Source: Patescibacteria group bacterium UBA3533 (GTDB lineage: Bacteria; Patescibacteriota; Minisyncoccia; Phycocordibacterales; Phycocordibacteraceae). From it: a DNA stretch of 64,000 nt. The notes under the pieces were generated by a model, which was not told the DNA's origin, made no database searches, and saw only the letters and a list, made by a program, of their open reading frames with translations. This document shows positions 49,378 through 56,674 of this stretch, piece after piece (the first letter of the stretch is position 1; each line of letters begins with the position of its first letter). Location: positions 62,572-126,571 of the forward strand of contig DFOU01000003.1 in assembly GCA_002376865.1 (NCBI GenBank), in the 5' to 3' direction. Made by a program: the position numbers and the translations under genes.

Positions 49378-50566
49378 TTTTGACCTACCTGATAAACCCG
49401 GTGTATATACATTTTTAGAAAAGAAGAAAATTCTCTACATTGGTAAGGCAACATCACTTCGCGATAGAGTACGGAGCTATTTTAATGATGATCTTATAGC
49501 AAGTCGCGGGCCTCGTATTGTAGATATGGTCACGAAGGCAGATGAGGTTGTATATGAGGAAACTGATTCAGTACTCGAAGCCCTTATTCTTGAATCTTTA
49601 AAGATTAAAAAACATCAGCCTTTTTATAATGTAAAAGAGAAGGACGATAAAAGTTATCTCTATGCTGTTGTAACAAAAGAAGAATGGCCTCGTGTTTTGG
49701 TTGTGCGAGGGAAGGATTTAGGAACTACATTTAAATTGGATTTAGTTAAAAATAAGTACGGGCCATTTACAAGCGGGCCGTCACTTAAAAAAGCCCTTGA
49801 GATTATTCGAAAGATTTTCCCTTTCTACGATACAAAAAATGCAGTAACAAGAGATACAAAACATCAGGGAGCTAACCTTGAGTTTAATAGGCAGATTGGA
49901 AGATACCCAAGGGATATCTCGCATACTGAATATGTGCGGAATATTCGCCACATAGAGCTCTTTTTATCTGGAAAGAAAAAGGTAATCCTCAAAGAACTTG
50001 AGAGGGAGATGAAAAAAGCTGCAAAAGAGGAACGTTTTGAAGATGCAGAGCGTCATAAGAGGCAAATGTTCTCGTTAACTCATATCCAAGATGTGTCACT
50101 TATTAAAAATGATTTACGCAGAGTGCACGGTGTTCGTGTGGAGGGGTACGATGTAGCGCACACAAGCGGGCAAGATACTGTTGGAGTTATGACAGTTGTT
50201 GTAGATGGGGAGGTTGAAAAGAAAAACTACAGAAAGTTTCTTATCAAAGAGCATGGAAATAATGATATCGGTTCTCTAACTGAATTACTGGAAAGGCGTT
50301 TTGGACATCCTGAGTGGGAGTATCCAAAGGTGATTGTGGTAGATGGAGGGGTAGCACAAAAAAATGCTGCGCTTAAGGTTTTAGATAAGTTGGGATTACA
50401 AATTCCTGTGGTTGCCGTAACAAAAGATGAATATCATAGGCCTAAAAAGATTATTGGACTGCCAGGAGTTTCAACTCCAGAAGGGGATATTATTCTTGCA
50501 AATGCCGAGGCACATAGGTATTCGCTTTCTTTCCACAGATCACGGAGGGATAACTTAAAAAGGTAG
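49355..50566 (+). CDS. uvrC: Excinuclease ABC subunit C, compact form (GIY-YIG + UvrBC-interaction + RNase H-like regions, no C-terminal HhH)
   Basis: 403 aa. N-terminal GIY-YIG (PGVYTFLEKKKILYIGKATSLRDRV), UVR-like helix (ERFEDAERHKRQM), C-terminal VVDGGVAQKNAALKVL...PVVAVTKDE endonuclease region. Confidence 0.75.
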   Translation: MQRKDLNNFDLPDKPGVYTFLEKKKILYIGKATSLRDRVRSYFNDDLIASRGPRIVDMVTKADEVVYEETDSVLEALILESLKIKKHQPFYNVKEKDDKSYLYAVVTKEEWPRVLVVRGKDLGTTFKLDLVKNKYGPFTSGPSLKKALEIIRKIFPFYDTKNAVTRDTKHQGANLEFNRQIGRYPRDISHTEYVRNIRHIELFLSGKKKVILKELEREMKKAAKEERFEDAERHKRQMFSLTHIQDVSLIKNDLRRVHGVRVEGYDVAHTSGQDTVGVMTVVVDGEVEKKNYRKFLIKEHGNNDIGSLTELLERRFGHPEWEYPKVIVVDGGVAQKNAALKVLDKLGLQIPVVAVTKDEYHRPKKIIGLPGVSTPEGDIILANAEAHRYSLSFHRSRRDNLKR

Positions 50567-50580
50567 GCTATACTTTATCT

Positions 50581-50835
50581 GTGAACGAAGACCAGATAAC
50601 AACAAAAGCTCCGCAAGAAGAGAACTCTCTTATAAAGATTGGAGGGATTATTTTTATAATCCTTTTCCTTCTTTCCGTGCTTGCGTACGCTATCACTCCA
50701 GTACGTCAAACTATTATTTTCTGGTGGCAGGATATGCAGGAGGCACAGCAGTTGCGTGCACTTGCTGATTTTGAAAAAGAGCAGCCGCAAGGGGATCTTA
50801 CAAAGGGAGCAAAACTTCGATTGCTTGATGAATAA
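50581..50835 (+). CDS. Small membrane protein (84 aa, GTG start)
   Basis: Single TM helix IGGIIFIILFLLSVLAYAI. Immediately precedes the paralog cluster. Confidence 0.35.
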   Translation: MNEDQITTKAPQEENSLIKIGGIIFIILFLLSVLAYAITPVRQTIIFWWQDMQEAQQLRALADFEKEQPQGDLTKGAKLRLLDE

Positions 50836-50836
50836 T

Positions 50837-51388
50837 ATGAAAAAATTTCTAACCACACGAACATTTTTTAGTACAGCATTGCCTCTCATTCTTTTCTTTG
50901 GATTTGTAGGTGTAGTTTCTGGAAGTTTTACTGAGCCAGGAAGCAATCCTCCAAGTGGAAATATTCCAGCTCCTATTAATGCAAGTGGTGCAGATCAGAC
51001 AAAGTCAGGAAATCTTTGGGTAGATAATGTAATTGCAGATAGTCTCAAGGCACTTTCTGAGCTTTGTATTGGTACTGAGTGTCGTACAGCATGGTCTGTG
51101 CCAGGACAGGATTTTTCAACAACATGTACCGTAAATAGAAAGATTGTTGCTAACCCTAGTAGCCCGGGAATTCCACATGCGTCTCGAGGGTCAACAGATC
51201 TTTGGCAGCTTGCCCAAGAGTGCCGTTGGCGTATCTCAAGCGCTGAGCGCGATGCAGGGTGGATGCTTGTTGGATTTGACAACTGTCCTTCTGTTGCTAG
51301 TCGAGACTGTGCAGGAGCAAGTTATTGTCAGTATATTCAACTAAGTTGTGAGTCTGGAATTACTACAAGTCGCGGGCGACACCGATAA
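50837..51388 (+). CDS. Secreted Cys-rich protein, paralog A of a three-member tandem family
   Basis: Signal peptide, then FTEPGSNPPSGNIPAPIN, CIGTECRTAW and DNCPSVASRDCAGASYCQYIQLSCESGIT blocks shared with paralogs B and C. Confidence 0.55.
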   Translation: MKKFLTTRTFFSTALPLILFFGFVGVVSGSFTEPGSNPPSGNIPAPINASGADQTKSGNLWVDNVIADSLKALSELCIGTECRTAWSVPGQDFSTTCTVNRKIVANPSSPGIPHASRGSTDLWQLAQECRWRISSAERDAGWMLVGFDNCPSVASRDCAGASYCQYIQLSCESGITTSRGRHR

Positions 51389-51391
51389 TTT

Positions 51392-52090
51392 ATGAATATG
51401 CAAAAATACATACAAAAAGCACTTCACATTTCAGGACTTCTTGCCGCAGTATTCATTTTTGTTGGTATTGCATATGCTATTAACTTCACACATCCAGGAT
51501 CTTCTCCAACTGGGGGAAATGTTGCAAAGCCTATTAATGTAGGTTCAGCAAGTCAGGTAAAAGAAGGAGGACTTACTCTTGACGAGTTAGTAGCAACTGG
51601 AAAAATTACAGGAGAGAATCAAATTTGTATAGGAAATGACTGTAAGAGTGCGTGGCCTGGAGGAAATGCATCACAATTTTCTACAGCTTGTCAAATACAT
51701 ACTCTTACCATTGCAGCAGACGATGACCAGCCAGGTGTACCGCACAATAATACTCGTATTACACGAGATGGTTTGGCGCAAAACTGCAATAGCCACCTTA
51801 CACAAGAAGAGAAAGATCTTGGCTTTATGATGGTCTCATTCGATAACTGCCCTGGTGTGTCAGGGCGAGACTGCTCAGGAGCAAGTTACTGTAAGTACAT
51901 TCGCTTTGAGTGTGATGCAGGTATTACTTTTAGGCAGGGCTCATTCTCTATAGGAGATCCTTCACATGAACCAGCGTGTAGGGACGGAAGAGATAACGAT
52001 GGAGATGGACTTGTAGACATGGATGATATTGGTTGTGATTATCAAGATGACCCAAGTGAGGAAAATGATCCAGGACAACAAAGAAATTAG
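51392..52090 (+). CDS. Secreted Cys-rich protein, paralog B (with acidic Asp-rich C-terminal tail)
   Basis: Signal peptide, FTHPGSSPTGGNVAKPIN, CIGNDCKSAWP, DNCPGVSGRDCSGASYCKYIRFECDAGITF. C-terminal DGRDNDGDGLVDMDD resembles a Ca-binding or dockerin-like acidic motif. Confidence 0.55.
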   Translation: MNMQKYIQKALHISGLLAAVFIFVGIAYAINFTHPGSSPTGGNVAKPINVGSASQVKEGGLTLDELVATGKITGENQICIGNDCKSAWPGGNASQFSTACQIHTLTIAADDDQPGVPHNNTRITRDGLAQNCNSHLTQEEKDLGFMMVSFDNCPGVSGRDCSGASYCKYIRFECDAGITFRQGSFSIGDPSHEPACRDGRDNDGDGLVDMDDIGCDYQDDPSEENDPGQQRN

Positions 52091-52091
52091 T

Positions 52092-52736
52092 ATGAAAACA
52101 ATCTTCAAACAAAAGGAGTTTACAAAAGGGTCTGCAATGGTTATTGCAGGACTCCTGCTCCTTTCAGGAACTGTACTTGCTGCGTCATTCTCTCAGCCCG
52201 GAAGTAACTTCCCAGCAGGAAACACGCTTGCTCCAATTCAAGAATCTTCTCAAGATCAATCTAAAGCAGGTGGTATTACAGCTAATAATGTTCGTGGATA
52301 TAATCTAAAAGGAACATCTGAGGTTTGTATTGGAAATGATTGCCGCAGCTCTTGGCCAACAGGAGGTGGTTCAACACTTTCAACAAACTGTGCGCTTGAA
52401 AACCTTATTCTTGAAGGGGACCCACATGGATCAAGCGGAGCTGTAAAAAAGGGAGATGTAGGTAGTCGTTGCGACAACATCCTTGGTTCACGAGCAAGTG
52501 AAGGGTGGGTAAATGTAGCACATGACAAGTGTCCTGGAGTTCAGGGTCGAGACTGTGCAGGAACTAATTACTGCCAGTACTTTAGAATTAATTGTGCAAG
52601 TGGCGTAACTTTTAGTGCAGGAGATCACACGCTTCGAGATACAGGAAGTGGCTCTTCAGGTGGGAGCAATGGAGGTGGTGGTGGAGATAATGGAACTGAA
52701 GGAGATGGTCCAAATGGCCCTGCTCTTCAAAATTAG
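52092..52736 (+). CDS. Secreted Cys-rich protein, paralog C (Gly-rich C-terminal tail)
   Basis: Signal peptide, [60 protein letters not shown]-terminal GSGSSGGSNGGGGGDNG. Confidence 0.55.
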   Translation: MKTIFKQKEFTKGSAMVIAGLLLLSGTVLAASFSQPGSNFPAGNTLAPIQESSQDQSKAGGITANNVRGYNLKGTSEVCIGNDCRSSWPTGGGSTLSTNCALENLILEGDPHGSSGAVKKGDVGSRCDNILGSRASEGWVNVAHDKCPGVQGRDCAGTNYCQYFRINCASGVTFSAGDHTLRDTGSGSSGGSNGGGGGDNGTEGDGPNGPALQN

Positions 52737-52741
52737 TTTTT

Positions 52742-55525
52742 ATGAATATGCAAAAAACAGTATTTCGAACACTTATTCTCACACTCGTATTTTTCGTGAG
52801 CACGTCATTTGCGCACGCACAATTCTTTTCAGTTCTTGGTGATAATTTTACTAACGCAGAACCAGAACCCACTCCAGTTGCAGTACAAGAGCCATCTCCA
52901 ATTATAAATCCAACTCCTGATCCAATTGTTTCAGATCCAGATCTTACTGTTGGAAATACTACAGTTATAGGAGCACGTGAGGTGGGAAGTACACTTACAC
53001 TCTCTGCAATTATGAGAAATATTGGACTTGGTACTGCAGAGTACGGTCCAGGCTTTCTTGTTTACTCTCAAGTGTACGATAGGACTCGTCGTCAGAACAT
53101 TGGAGAAGGATTGCGTGGGTATGGGTCCCCACTACTACCTTTAAGAAGCAGGGCACTTCAAGATACGTGGACACCAACACAATCAGGAGACTATCAAGCT
53201 CGTTTTTGTGCTGATATTCCGCCAAACCCATCAGGAAACGTAAGTGAGAGTAATGAGGGCAATAACTGTGGCGCATGGACAACTTTTTCTATCAATGCAG
53301 CAGGGCAGCCAGACCTCTCAGTTGATGCACCAAGTATTTCAGGAACACGACAGGCCGGGCAAACGCTTACATTCTCTTCACGAATGAGAAATATTGGAAA
53401 TGCAACAGCTTCACGTTCAGGTAATTTTGCAACCACATTCCAAATCTATCGCTCTTCAACACAAATTGTTGGAAGAGGAACTTCAACAAATGGACAGGCT
53501 CTTTCAGCTGGAGCATCAAGGACCATAACTGATACGTGGACTGCAGAGGCTGGAAGTTATGTTGCGCGCTTCTGTGCAGATATCCCCCCTGCGAGTCCTG
53601 GAAATATTCCAGAGAGCAATGAGAGCAACAACTGTAGCGGATGGACAAGCTTTACTGTCTCAAGTCCTGTGGCATCAGGAGCACCAGACCTTACGGTAGG
53701 TGCTACAAGTATTTCTGGAACACCAACGCTTAATCAGGCACTCAATTTCTCTGCAACAATGTCTAATATTGGAAATGCAACAGCCTCACACTCAGGTGGA
53801 TTTAGAAATTACTTCCAGGTATGGGATTTTACACGAAGTCAAAATAATGGAACAACTATTACAAACAAGGGTTCAAATCTAAATGTAGGACAAAGCAGAA
53901 CGCTAACAGGAAGCTTTACTCCGACTCAAGCTGGAAACTATCAAGCGCGTTTCTGTGCTGATATTCCGCCAAACCCATCAGGAAATGTAAGTGAGAGTAA
54001 CGAGAATAATAACTGTGGAGCCTGGCAATCATTCACTGTTGCTGATGTACCTGCAGGAAGTGGTGCAGGAGACCGTCTTACAGGACACGCATGGTCTTCA
54101 AACATTGGATGGGTGTCATTTTATGGACCGGGGTATGAGGTAAATATTGATGCAAATTCAGGAAATCTCTCAGGATATGCATGGTCTTCAAACATTGGAT
54201 GGATTAGCTTTAATGGAAATCATACAAATGGATGTCCAAGTGGAAGTTGTCAGGCAAATTATAATAATTCAAATGGAAATGTAACCGGATGGGCAAAGGC
54301 GCTAGCTGGAGGAGGATCTAATTCAGGAAACTGGGACGGGTGGATCTATCTTGGACAGAGCTCTCGTGTGGGGGTAAACGTAGATGCCAACTGTAACTGG
54401 AATGGGCGAGCGTGGGGAGGAGGCTCATCATTAAGCACGGGTGTAATCGGATGGCTGTCATTTAATGGACCAGGGTATGGAGTAACAGGAACAGGAGCAG
54501 GGTGTCCTATTGCTGAGCCAGCACCTGTTGCAAGTCTTGCGCTTAATCCAGAAATTATTCTTGAAGGCGCATCAAGTCAATTAACATGGGGGTCAACAGG
54601 GGCAACTAGTTGTGTTGGAACAAATTTCAGTACTGGAGGGTCAACAAGCGGAACTGTAAATGTTTCTCCGAGTACTACAACTGGATATTCTGTTCGATGT
54701 ACAGGACCTGGAGGAGTAGATACTGCAAGCGCGCAACTTACTGTTGACAGTGTAACTCAGACTGCAACAGCAAGTCTTAGTGTCAGTCCAGCAAGTATTC
54801 AAACTGGAAATAGCGCAACGCTATCATGGAGCTCTGCAAATGCAGATAGCTGTACTGGGACAAACTTTAGTACCGGAGGAAGTACAATTGGTTCAATGAG
54901 TGTTTCTCCAAGTTCAACAGTGACATACGGTCTTGAGTGTTCAAATACTGGTAATTCAGACACTGACAGCGCAACACTTACTGTAACTCAAGGTCCAGGA
55001 GGTGGTGGTGGCGGAAGCCGACCAACCGCAGATATTAATGCGAGTCCACGATCAATTCTAATTGGAGAGTCGTCAACAATTAGTTGGACATCAACTAATG
55101 CCGATAGCTGTAGTGGAACAGGATTTAGTACGAGCGGTTCAACAAGTGGAAATGCTGCTGTTTCGCCAACAAGTGATGCAACATATCAGGTACAGTGTAC
55201 AAATAGCCAAGGAAGTACAAATGACTTTGTAGATGTTGAGGTCTTGCAACCAAACATTACTATTACCGTAGATGGTGAGTCAGACTCTATTCGAGTTGCC
55301 AAAGATGCAGTGGTTGATGTTGTCTGGCATGCAGAAGATACTGATAGTTGTGATGTTGTAGGTCCTGGAGTTCTTGTAAACAATGCAACTGACGATCCTT
55401 TCGATGGATCTGCAAGTGTAACTATTTCTGAGCGAAGTGTGTACACAATCGAGTGTGATGCTTCAACTGAAACATATACAGAATCAGTAACGGTTAATAT
55501 TCCTCCAGACTTCGAGGAGTTCTAA
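52742..55525 (+). CDS. Large secreted multi-repeat surface protein (putative adhesin)
   Basis: 927 aa. Signal peptide. Four ~120-aa repeats ending FCADIPPxxPGNxxESNExNNCxxW (CARDB-like), GWxSFNG tandem motifs, then four ~90-aa Ig-like repeats (LxWxSxNAxSCxGTNFSTGGST). Shares the tatgaatatgcaaaaa start context with paralog B. Confidence 0.65.
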   Translation: MNMQKTVFRTLILTLVFFVSTSFAHAQFFSVLGDNFTNAEPEPTPVAVQEPSPIINPTPDPIVSDPDLTVGNTTVIGAREVGSTLTLSAIMRNIGLGTAEYGPGFLVYSQVYDRTRRQNIGEGLRGYGSPLLPLRSRALQDTWTPTQSGDYQARFCADIPPNPSGNVSESNEGNNCGAWTTFSINAAGQPDLSVDAPSISGTRQAGQTLTFSSRMRNIGNATASRSGNFATTFQIYRSSTQIVGRGTSTNGQALSAGASRTITDTWTAEAGSYVARFCADIPPASPGNIPESNESNNCSGWTSFTVSSPVASGAPDLTVGATSISGTPTLNQALNFSATMSNIGNATASHSGGFRNYFQVWDFTRSQNNGTTITNKGSNLNVGQSRTLTGSFTPTQAGNYQARFCADIPPNPSGNVSESNENNNCGAWQSFTVADVPAGSGAGDRLTGHAWSSNIGWVSFYGPGYEVNIDANSGNLSGYAWSSNIGWISFNGNHTNGCPSGSCQANYNNSNGNVTGWAKALAGGGSNSGNWDGWIYLGQSSRVGVNVDANCNWNGRAWGGGSSLSTGVIGWLSFNGPGYGVTGTGAGCPIAEPAPVASLALNPEIILEGASSQLTWGSTGATSCVGTNFSTGGSTSGTVNVSPSTTTGYSVRCTGPGGVDTASAQLTVDSVTQTATASLSVSPASIQTGNSATLSWSSANADSCTGTNFSTGGSTIGSMSVSPSSTVTYGLECSNTGNSDTDSATLTVTQGPGGGGGGSRPTADINASPRSILIGESSTISWTSTNADSCSGTGFSTSGSTSGNAAVSPTSDATYQVQCTNSQGSTNDFVDVEVLQPNITITVDGESDSIRVAKDAVVDVVWHAEDTDSCDVVGPGVLVNNATDDPFDGSASVTISERSVYTIECDASTETYTESVTVNIPPDFEEF

Positions 55526-55545
55526 GAAAGTGATACACTAGCACT

Positions 55546-56597: not shown

Positions 56598-56674
56598 GGG
56601 CTCGTAGCTCAGTTGGCTAGAGCGCCTCACTTGCACTGAGGAGGTCGGGGGTTCGATTCCTCTCGAGTCCACCA
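56598..56674 (+). tRNA. tRNA-Ala (anticodon TGC), CCA encoded
   Basis: GGGCTCG acceptor with G3:U70, D-arm GCTCAGTTGGCTAGAGC, anticodon loop CTTGCAC, T-arm GGGGGTTCGATTCCTCT, ACCA 3' end. Confidence 0.9.

Follow-up and report, generated by a model that had tools for sequence, protein, structure and literature searches.

We have analysed a 64-kb window, meaning the whole stretch of 64,000 nucleotides (nt) taken from contig DFOU01000003.1 of Patescibacteria group bacterium UBA3533 (forward strand, contig positions 62,572 to 126,571); all coordinates given here are those of the window. This bacterium is marine, ultra-small and has not been cultivated. The locus under study comprises three consecutive genes, A, B and C, which encode small cysteine-rich proteins with predicted signal peptides and lie between the gene for a small membrane protein and that for a secreted protein of 927 amino acids (aa). 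The Patescibacteria, or Candidate Phyla Radiation (CPR), make up a large part of bacterial diversity, and the majority are thought to live attached to other cells. Little is known of how they build their surfaces and recognise their hosts, since few of their secreted proteins carry any annotation. The locus supplies three elements that can be searched for, an N-terminal motif that we call the handle, a disulfide hairpin and a partner protein with a candidate C-terminal tag, together with a small conserved operon holding all of them.

Three paralogous genes in a conserved unit

The unit consists of five genes on the plus strand. It begins with a gene for an 84-aa single-pass membrane protein that starts with GTG (50581–50835), followed by A (50837–51388, 183 aa), B (51392–52090, 232 aa), C (52092–52736, 214 aa) and the gene for the 927-aa protein (52742–55525). 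Gaps within the unit measure only 1–5 nt, with 3 nt between A and B, 1 nt between B and C, and the last gene starting 5 nt 3′ of gene C. Pairwise BLASTP aligns A and B with 41% identity (E = 6e-47), A and C with 38% (E = 3e-41) and B and C with 35% (E = 1e-38). All three N-termini carry a positive charge, then a hydrophobic stretch of 15–20 residues and then small residues, as in Sec-type signal peptides. The open reading frames (ORFs) and BLASTP agree with a preliminary description of the DNA, which had proposed three tandem paralogous genes with signal peptides, the latter being read directly from the protein N-termini. A region of chance ORFs or mis-annotation is a reading for which we found no support and to which we give practically no weight: it is already refuted by the homologs and the synteny, that is, by paralog E-values down to 6e-47, by cysteines conserved in 11 close homologs and about 35 representative distant ones, and by syntenic orthologs in five other contigs. 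The proteins of the window themselves are also present in Tara Oceans mesopelagic assemblies.

Protein A displays the basic architecture. A signal peptide (aa 1–30) is followed by the N-terminal motif (aa 31–58), a hairpin (C77–W86) and a head (C97–T176) without any tail. The motif of A, FTEPGSNPPSGNIPAPINASGADQTKSG (50927–51010, plus strand), was found by pattern match and begins at the predicted signal-peptidase cleavage site. The hairpin, CIGTECRTAW in A (51065–51094, plus strand), reads CIGNDCKSAW in B and CIGNDCRSSW in C, where it begins at 51626 and 52326, respectively. The head (51125–51364, plus strand) contains six cysteines (C97, C129, C150, C158, C164 and C171) and includes the C-terminal block D[NK]CP[GS]V..RDC[AS]G..YC[QK]Y....C..G[IV]T common to A, B and C. 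All the motifs quoted in the preliminary description could be located; however, while the N-terminal strings FTEPGSNPPSGNIPAPIN and FTHPGSSPTGGNVAKPIN are as expected, the third contains K-P-I-N and not A-P-I-N. The tails do diverge in the manner described, with an Asp-rich extension in B and a Gly-rich one in C (aa ~183–214). That of B forms an acidic module of the pattern C-x-D-G-x-D-N-D-x-D-G...C (aa 193–216, containing ACRDGRDNDGDGLVDMDDIGC; 51968–52039, plus strand), which is Ca-binding-like and predicted to be closed by a disulfide between two further cysteines.

The number of conserved cysteines, previously put at about eight, is exactly eight, and in the alignment none of them varies among A, B, C and the 11 close homologs (C77, C82, C97, C129, C150, C158, C164 and C171 in A numbering). 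Among 42 aligned family members cysteines are lost only in pairs, never singly: C77 and C82 are jointly missing in two members and C150 and C158 in four, and in three members C158 is shifted by a few alignment columns. Since each pair is lost together, this supports disulfides C77–C82 and C150–C158. The suggestion that the cysteines are disulfide-bonded thus gains evidence for two pairs, and the remaining four head cysteines are presumed to pair as C97–C171 and C129–C164.

Several common modes of surface anchoring do not fit the three proteins. A lipobox L-x-x-C has no match in A, B or C and the first cysteine (C77 in A, C79 in B and C) lies far past the signal peptide, which rejects a lipoprotein. 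They are not sortase substrates either, as LPXTG and a C-terminal hydrophobic stretch are both absent from their ends (...TSRGRHR, ...DPGQQRN and ...GPALQN). A type IV pilin or pseudopilin was rejected because NCBIfam and Pfam gave no such match at E ≤ 1, the conserved motif comes after the hydrophobic segment, and their junction obeys the signal peptidase I rule V/A-x-A|W/F.

The same gene order recurs in five other contigs, one of them from Patescibacteria bacterium UBA2103: uvrB, a histidine kinase, a response regulator, uvrA, uvrC, the small membrane protein, one or more family members, the large secreted protein and ddl. The succession from the small membrane protein through A, B and C to the large protein is identical in L001 and L004; L006 keeps it as far as gene C, within which the contig ends, the large protein gene and ddl not being visible there. 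In L005 the order is the same but there is just one family copy, and three relatives carry A, B and C. Orthologs of the small membrane protein occupy the same position in L001, L004, L005 and L006, with lengths of 82–115 aa and a conserved C-terminal PQGDLT motif. A neighbour-joining tree resolves A, B and C into three clades, each of which holds a single gene per genome for four genomes, and leaves the single-copy lineages outside them; the triplication is therefore old and not recent, with all three copies kept. The nearest genome for which DNA is available has 67% amino-acid identity, a distance at which synonymous sites would be saturated.

Terminator-like sites are absent from within the five-gene unit, and a scan for consensus promoters and terminators gave nothing above shuffled background. 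In five genomes (the window and, at the same positions, L001, L004, L005 and L006) a −10-like box of sequence TATACT, TACAAT or TACACT, in some cases preceded by TG, is found 6–7 nt before the start codon of the small membrane protein and again before that of ddl; in the window the two boxes fall within 50561–50580 and 55526–55545. Boxes 6–7 nt from a start codon suggest leaderless transcripts, and this arrangement suggests that promoters of the leaderless type bracket the unit. The location invites the explanation that the unit serves a housekeeping function of the cell envelope, such as peptidoglycan and cell-wall organisation or division: the surrounding region is a housekeeping one, and the unit is flanked by uvrC and ddl (D-Ala-D-Ala ligase) in all four relatives whose contigs extend that far, L005 among them; in L006 it likewise follows uvrC. 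We consider this improbable. The conserved −10-like box of its own makes ddl appear to be a separate transcription unit, and elsewhere the equivalent gene pairs described below are unlinked to cell-wall genes. Furthermore, CARDB and Ig repeats and variable tails, as found here, are features typically seen in surface-exposed proteins.

The starts of gene B and of the 927-aa protein gene are marked by the same 18-nt sequence, TTTATGAATATGCAAAAA, which encodes MNMQK and occurs exactly twice in the window (51389–51406 and 52739–52756; 0.01 expected by chance). An identical start context had been noticed before and is real, albeit with 18 and not 16 nt; its interpretation as a trace of recent duplication does not hold, because the encoded proteins are unrelated and diverge after codon 5. 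A comparison of the B start with that of the large gene in L001 finds 15 shared A/T-rich nt, and in L004 none. Local gene conversion or chance may account for the sharing.

Head, hairpin and handle

We define the family by a signal peptide, the N-terminal motif, the CxGxxCxxxW hairpin and a head with six further cysteines at conserved distances. All of these features are found in A, B, C and 33 of the 42 aligned members. The preliminary description had treated them as one novel domain signature, but they separate into three modules with very different distributions: only the head of about 90 residues is specific to the A/B/C family, the handle and the hairpin being widespread.

No described family emerged for any of these parts. 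The conserved portions of A, B and C have no match in Pfam, NCBIfam or PHROGs, none of the 42 aligned members matches Pfam, and Pfam and NCBIfam contain no model of either the handle or the hairpin. A family profile search of PDB sequences gave nothing at E ≤ 1. To model mature A with AlphaFold2 (AF2), we used the 42-sequence alignment, which yielded a mean predicted local distance difference test score (pLDDT) of 73.6, compared with 49 for an 11-sequence alignment. Within the head, blocks of 10 residues have mean pLDDT values of 63–91; five of the nine blocks reach at least 80 and the lowest is at 63. The secondary-structure elements follow the order strand-helix-helix-strand-strand, the first strand being long, and the head is thus modelled as a folded alpha/beta unit. 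Foldseek, whose use on an AlphaFold model had been proposed at the outset, found no confident match for the head (none at E ≤ 1e-3 in PDB or viral models), and no homology to a characterised family came to light; the best structural neighbours are the SEA domain and ferredoxin-like alpha/beta sandwiches. A C-type lectin-like domain, considered for the resemblance of GWMLVGFDNC to WIGL-D, has no support from profiles or fold. Literature searches brought up neither the motif strings nor anything relevant on cysteine-rich surface proteins of the CPR. The earlier impression of an unrecognised family is in agreement with these sequence, profile and fold searches, and we conclude that head, handle, hairpin and the partner protein discussed below belong to no described family.

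The acidic tail of B is the sole annotated piece among the three proteins. It matches NCBIfam NF033662 (acid_disulf_rpt) with E = 5.2e-6 and 26.1 bits, which as a credible but single repeat unit stays below the whole-protein cutoff of 41 bits; A and C have no such match. Tails of this type are also present in the B orthologs and in distant family members.

An exhaustive hidden Markov model (HMM) search with the cysteine-rich part retrieved 129 representative proteins at E ≤ 1e-3. About 35 of them match over the full domain and are proteins of 170–240 aa with the architecture of A. In a few distant members the head is part of a longer protein, where it follows a LamG-like domain, precedes a Hint domain or is combined with a B-type tail. 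In one of these, P0032, a C-terminal Hint/intein-like domain directly follows the head, which suggests autoprocessing or attachment chemistry in some members. The other matches, about 90 of the 129, align only to the first ~25–38 profile positions, that is, to the hairpin. Giant proteins of CPR type, with lengths of up to 3,705 aa, carry as many as 13 copies of the hairpin. A second class of hairpin-repeat proteins (P0038, P0049, P0051, P0092, P0104, P0119, P0121, P0126 and P0129) carries another position-locked N-terminal motif after a hydrophobic segment, PNPGH[SD]A / FGHSxxEID, and this motif may correspond to the handle in archaea (DPANN).

The distribution of the handle was explored by scanning metagenome and viral contigs with a degenerate DNA pattern for PPxGNxxxP[ILFM]Nx5QxKxG. 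At least 120 metagenome contigs matched, several of them from 0.1-μm groundwater filtrates, and there was no match in 2.9 million viral contigs. Among the matches listed, 84 instances of the handle were recovered, 82 of them distinct. Word-index homolog searches with short alignments of the motif gave no measure of breadth, as they yielded just 6 and 125 candidates, each of them a short fragment. Nearly all instances with a visible gene start place the handle 26–46 residues from the initiating Met and directly after a hydrophobic segment. The proteins bearing it range from about 100 to more than 1,100 aa and are at times encoded in tandem arrays. The logo of the 82 distinct instances reads V/A/I(−3)-x-A(−1) | W(71)/F(8)-T-E-P(79)-T/S-x-A-P-P-G-G-N-V-x-A-P-I/L-N-V/T-G/S-xxx-Q-x-K-x-G-x-L. 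The handle begins at a canonical signal-peptidase I site and therefore should form the mature N-terminus after cleavage. It is common to many otherwise unrelated secreted proteins of CPR type. One of them, in L050, ends in a Peptidase_S74 domain (E = 3e-17), and the handle protein of L034 has a weak, sub-threshold match to this domain. The Peptidase_S74 intramolecular chaperone is a hallmark of trimeric fibre proteins (PMC3742443, PMC8326128).

These distributions bear on the possibility that A, B and C are released as soluble factors, namely cysteine-rich toxins, bacteriocin-like proteins, effectors or signalling molecules that are not structurally connected to the 927-aa protein. Such proteins would be small, exported and rich in disulfides, as are many secreted toxins and effectors and as A, B and C appear to be with their signal peptides and four predicted disulfides. 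Their sequences contain no visible membrane anchor, LPXTG or lipobox, and the Hint domain of P0032 is of a kind seen in polymorphic toxins. However, neither an immunity-like gene nor a variable toxin-like C-terminus is found, and the ortholog groups are stable across four genomes instead of diversifying rapidly. In addition, the handle is common to long fibre-type proteins, and the operon and the partner are strictly conserved. A soluble role is thus unlikely in our view. For the roles of lectin, effector or toxin-like module that the preliminary description had considered, the analysis yielded no evidence in either direction.

The AWS-repeat partner and a candidate surface assembly

Clustering of all ORFs from 80 loci selected by the handle pattern singled out only one strongly recurrent neighbour family, which we call the AWS family and define by a signal peptide, repeats of the general form G[WY]AWSxxIGW[IV]SF, Ig/PKD-type domains, a terminal Px[WF]xE[IVF] motif and a neighbouring handle gene. 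Its members are secreted proteins with G[WY]AWSENIGWISF repeats, Ig/PKD-type domains and a conserved extreme C-terminus, LPxW[KRQ]E[IV]xP[FW] or P[DG]FEEF, with no membrane segment after it. This terminal peptide was seen in L017, L021, L027, L032, L071, L075 and L084 and in the window (55499–55522); it may represent an undescribed kind of tag for docking or sorting. The 927-aa protein has a signal peptide, three CARDB domains (Pfam E = 1.8e-28), Ig-like repeats, two repeats G[HY]AWSSNIGW[VI]SF starting at 54083 and 54173, and the C-terminus IPPDFEEF; its orthologs at the same position also end in FEEF. In a phmmer comparison it matched an AWS-family neighbour of handle genes with E = 1.5e-20, and by its sequence it can be assigned to this family. 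Its AWS/Ig part (aa 439–752) also matches PHROG 2155, 'virion structural protein' (E = 1e-18), the handle pattern itself being absent from viral contigs.

To quantify the pairing, we took as denominator the 21 handle genes flanked on either side by no less than 1.5 kb of visible sequence. Of these 21 informative genes, 10 have an AWS gene no more than 2 kb away on the same strand, and conversely 18 of 19 AWS ORFs lie within 2 kb, on the same strand, of a handle gene (both counts among the matches listed). A link with the downstream repeat protein, already suspected in the preliminary description, is therefore seen both in the conserved synteny and in wider metagenome co-occurrence.

Taken together, we favour the view that A, B and C are exported, disulfide-stabilised proteins of the cell surface and parts of a CPR surface fibre or adhesin assembly, to which we assign a probability of roughly 0.5. 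Through the handle, the three proteins would be attached to or assembled into a structure at the surface to which the AWS-repeat partner would also contribute. The CxGxxCxxxW hairpin would act as a neck and the head would be locked by three more disulfides, such that the cysteine-rich heads and tails could form exposed ends contacting a ligand, for adhesion to a host or a substrate. The three paralogs would act together in a fixed stoichiometry, possibly as a hetero-oligomer, which is plausible because of their 1:1:1 retention and the fibre (trimer) context of the handle. They would work with the AWS-repeat/CARDB protein, and probably also with the small membrane protein, as one surface assembly.

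A number of points weigh against this view. Paralogy, export signals, the cysteine framework, the sharing of modules, synteny and gene pairing are established by the data, but we infer the surface location, the cleavage site, the contact with the partner and the adhesive role. No ligand-binding or catalytic site can be named in A, B or C. The AF2 model reaches no more than moderate confidence (mean pLDDT 73.6), and the handle appears in it as a low-confidence coil. The pairing of handle and AWS genes was counted on loci picked by one exact pattern and not on complete genomes. The 64-kb window contains neither an S26 peptidase nor a pilus gene, pilC and pilD included, and the fixed place between uvrC and ddl could be a chance linkage in streamlined genomes.

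The question of pilus genes arises from four loci (L021, L027, L064 and L085) in which pilC and then pilD lie, in the same order, just upstream of a handle gene. In two of these, L021 and L027, an AWS gene comes next. Type IV pili are important for the attachment of CPR bacteria to their hosts. The handle and AWS proteins might thus be pilus accessories forming a tip or base adhesin complex, like PilY1 with the minor pilins, and A, B and C would decorate host-attachment pili; the C-terminal AWS peptide could then serve as a docking strand. We doubt this explanation. Four or five loci out of 80 represent a mild enrichment only, and pilus genes are absent from the 64-kb window and from the surroundings of the cluster in the five syntenic loci. 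Moreover, A, B and C have no prepilin cleavage/methylation motif, and their hydrophobic segment lies before the conserved motif. The similarity to PilY1/minor-pilin tip complexes (PMC7541494) resides in a large secreted non-pilin adhesin encoded beside small paralogous subunits and in the handle/AWS pairs that follow pilC-pilD. It does not extend to a prepilin signal in A, B and C, to a PilY1 domain match in the 927-aa AWS protein or to pilus genes nearby.

For the surface assembly that we favour, the closest working analogue in terms of operon logic would be TapA-SipW-TasA (PMC9674648), the biofilm fibre system of Bacillus subtilis (PMC9674648, PMC10151520), and in terms of architecture the tail-fibre-like proteins. 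Peptidase_S26 genes directly adjoin handle genes in five loci (L008, L022, L023, L067 and L082), in one of them between two handle genes. This resembles the sipW-tasA arrangement, in which Sec-exported subunits are encoded beside a dedicated S26-type signal peptidase. In the Bacillus system the new mature N-terminus is the assembly element, a role that the handle could share, as it starts exactly at the predicted cleavage site. On the other hand, A, B and C have no sequence or fold similarity to TasA or camelysin, and membership in that family (Peptidase_M73) was rejected since there is no Pfam match and no S26 gene in the window. The operon logic is thus alike only at other handle loci. The handle is also rich in proline and unlikely to be a simple donor strand.

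With the S74 trimeric fibres (PMC3742443, PMC8326128) the comparison concerns a design with a conserved N-terminal end for attachment and a distal end that varies, and the handle protein of L050, which combines GNVGIGT-type repeats, a cysteine hairpin and Peptidase_S74. In contrast, A, B and C are cellular proteins with signal peptides that contain no fibre repeats, and in Pfam no S74 domain, for which reason they were not assigned to the Peptidase_S74 tail fibres. The likeness to NF033662 is shared by the tail of B and those of many distant members (E = 5e-6 to 9e-6). It amounts to one unit with 25–26 bits against a cutoff of 41 bits and covers the tail, not the head that defines the family.

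A wider and distinctly more tentative proposal is that the handle and the AWS proteins with their C-terminal peptide are the two halves of an unrecognised CPR-wide display or assembly system, sometimes served by a dedicated S26 peptidase, in which many different proteins of fibre and head type would be displayed on one shared partner. A, B and C might then be a minimal, obligate hetero-oligomeric and perhaps heterotrimeric cargo. If the pairing reflects physical assembly, it would provide concrete targets for structure prediction, cryo-electron tomography and proteomics of CPR attachment, and hundreds of "hypothetical" CPR proteins could be classed as cargo of one system.

A putative neighbouring island

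Downstream of ddl the relatives carry other genes, and between 56 and 60 kb of the window the GC content falls to ~0.38 and the GC skew flips. A tRNA-Ala(tgc) gene (56598–56674) is overlapped by the 3′ end of a minus-strand gene for a 520-aa large serine recombinase (Resolvase and Zn_ribbon_recom domains; within 56598–58179), and this region looks like a mobile element integrated at a tRNA. The putative island also contains a gene for a 615-aa AAA_15/AAA_21 ATPase, which may be of the defence type (60440–62287, plus strand); a minus-strand ORF of 225 aa beside it (59044–59724) has no Pfam match. A LOOT RNA (Rfam RF03000) was detected inside the same island at 59976–60088 on the plus strand, with 65.6 bits, above the gathering score.

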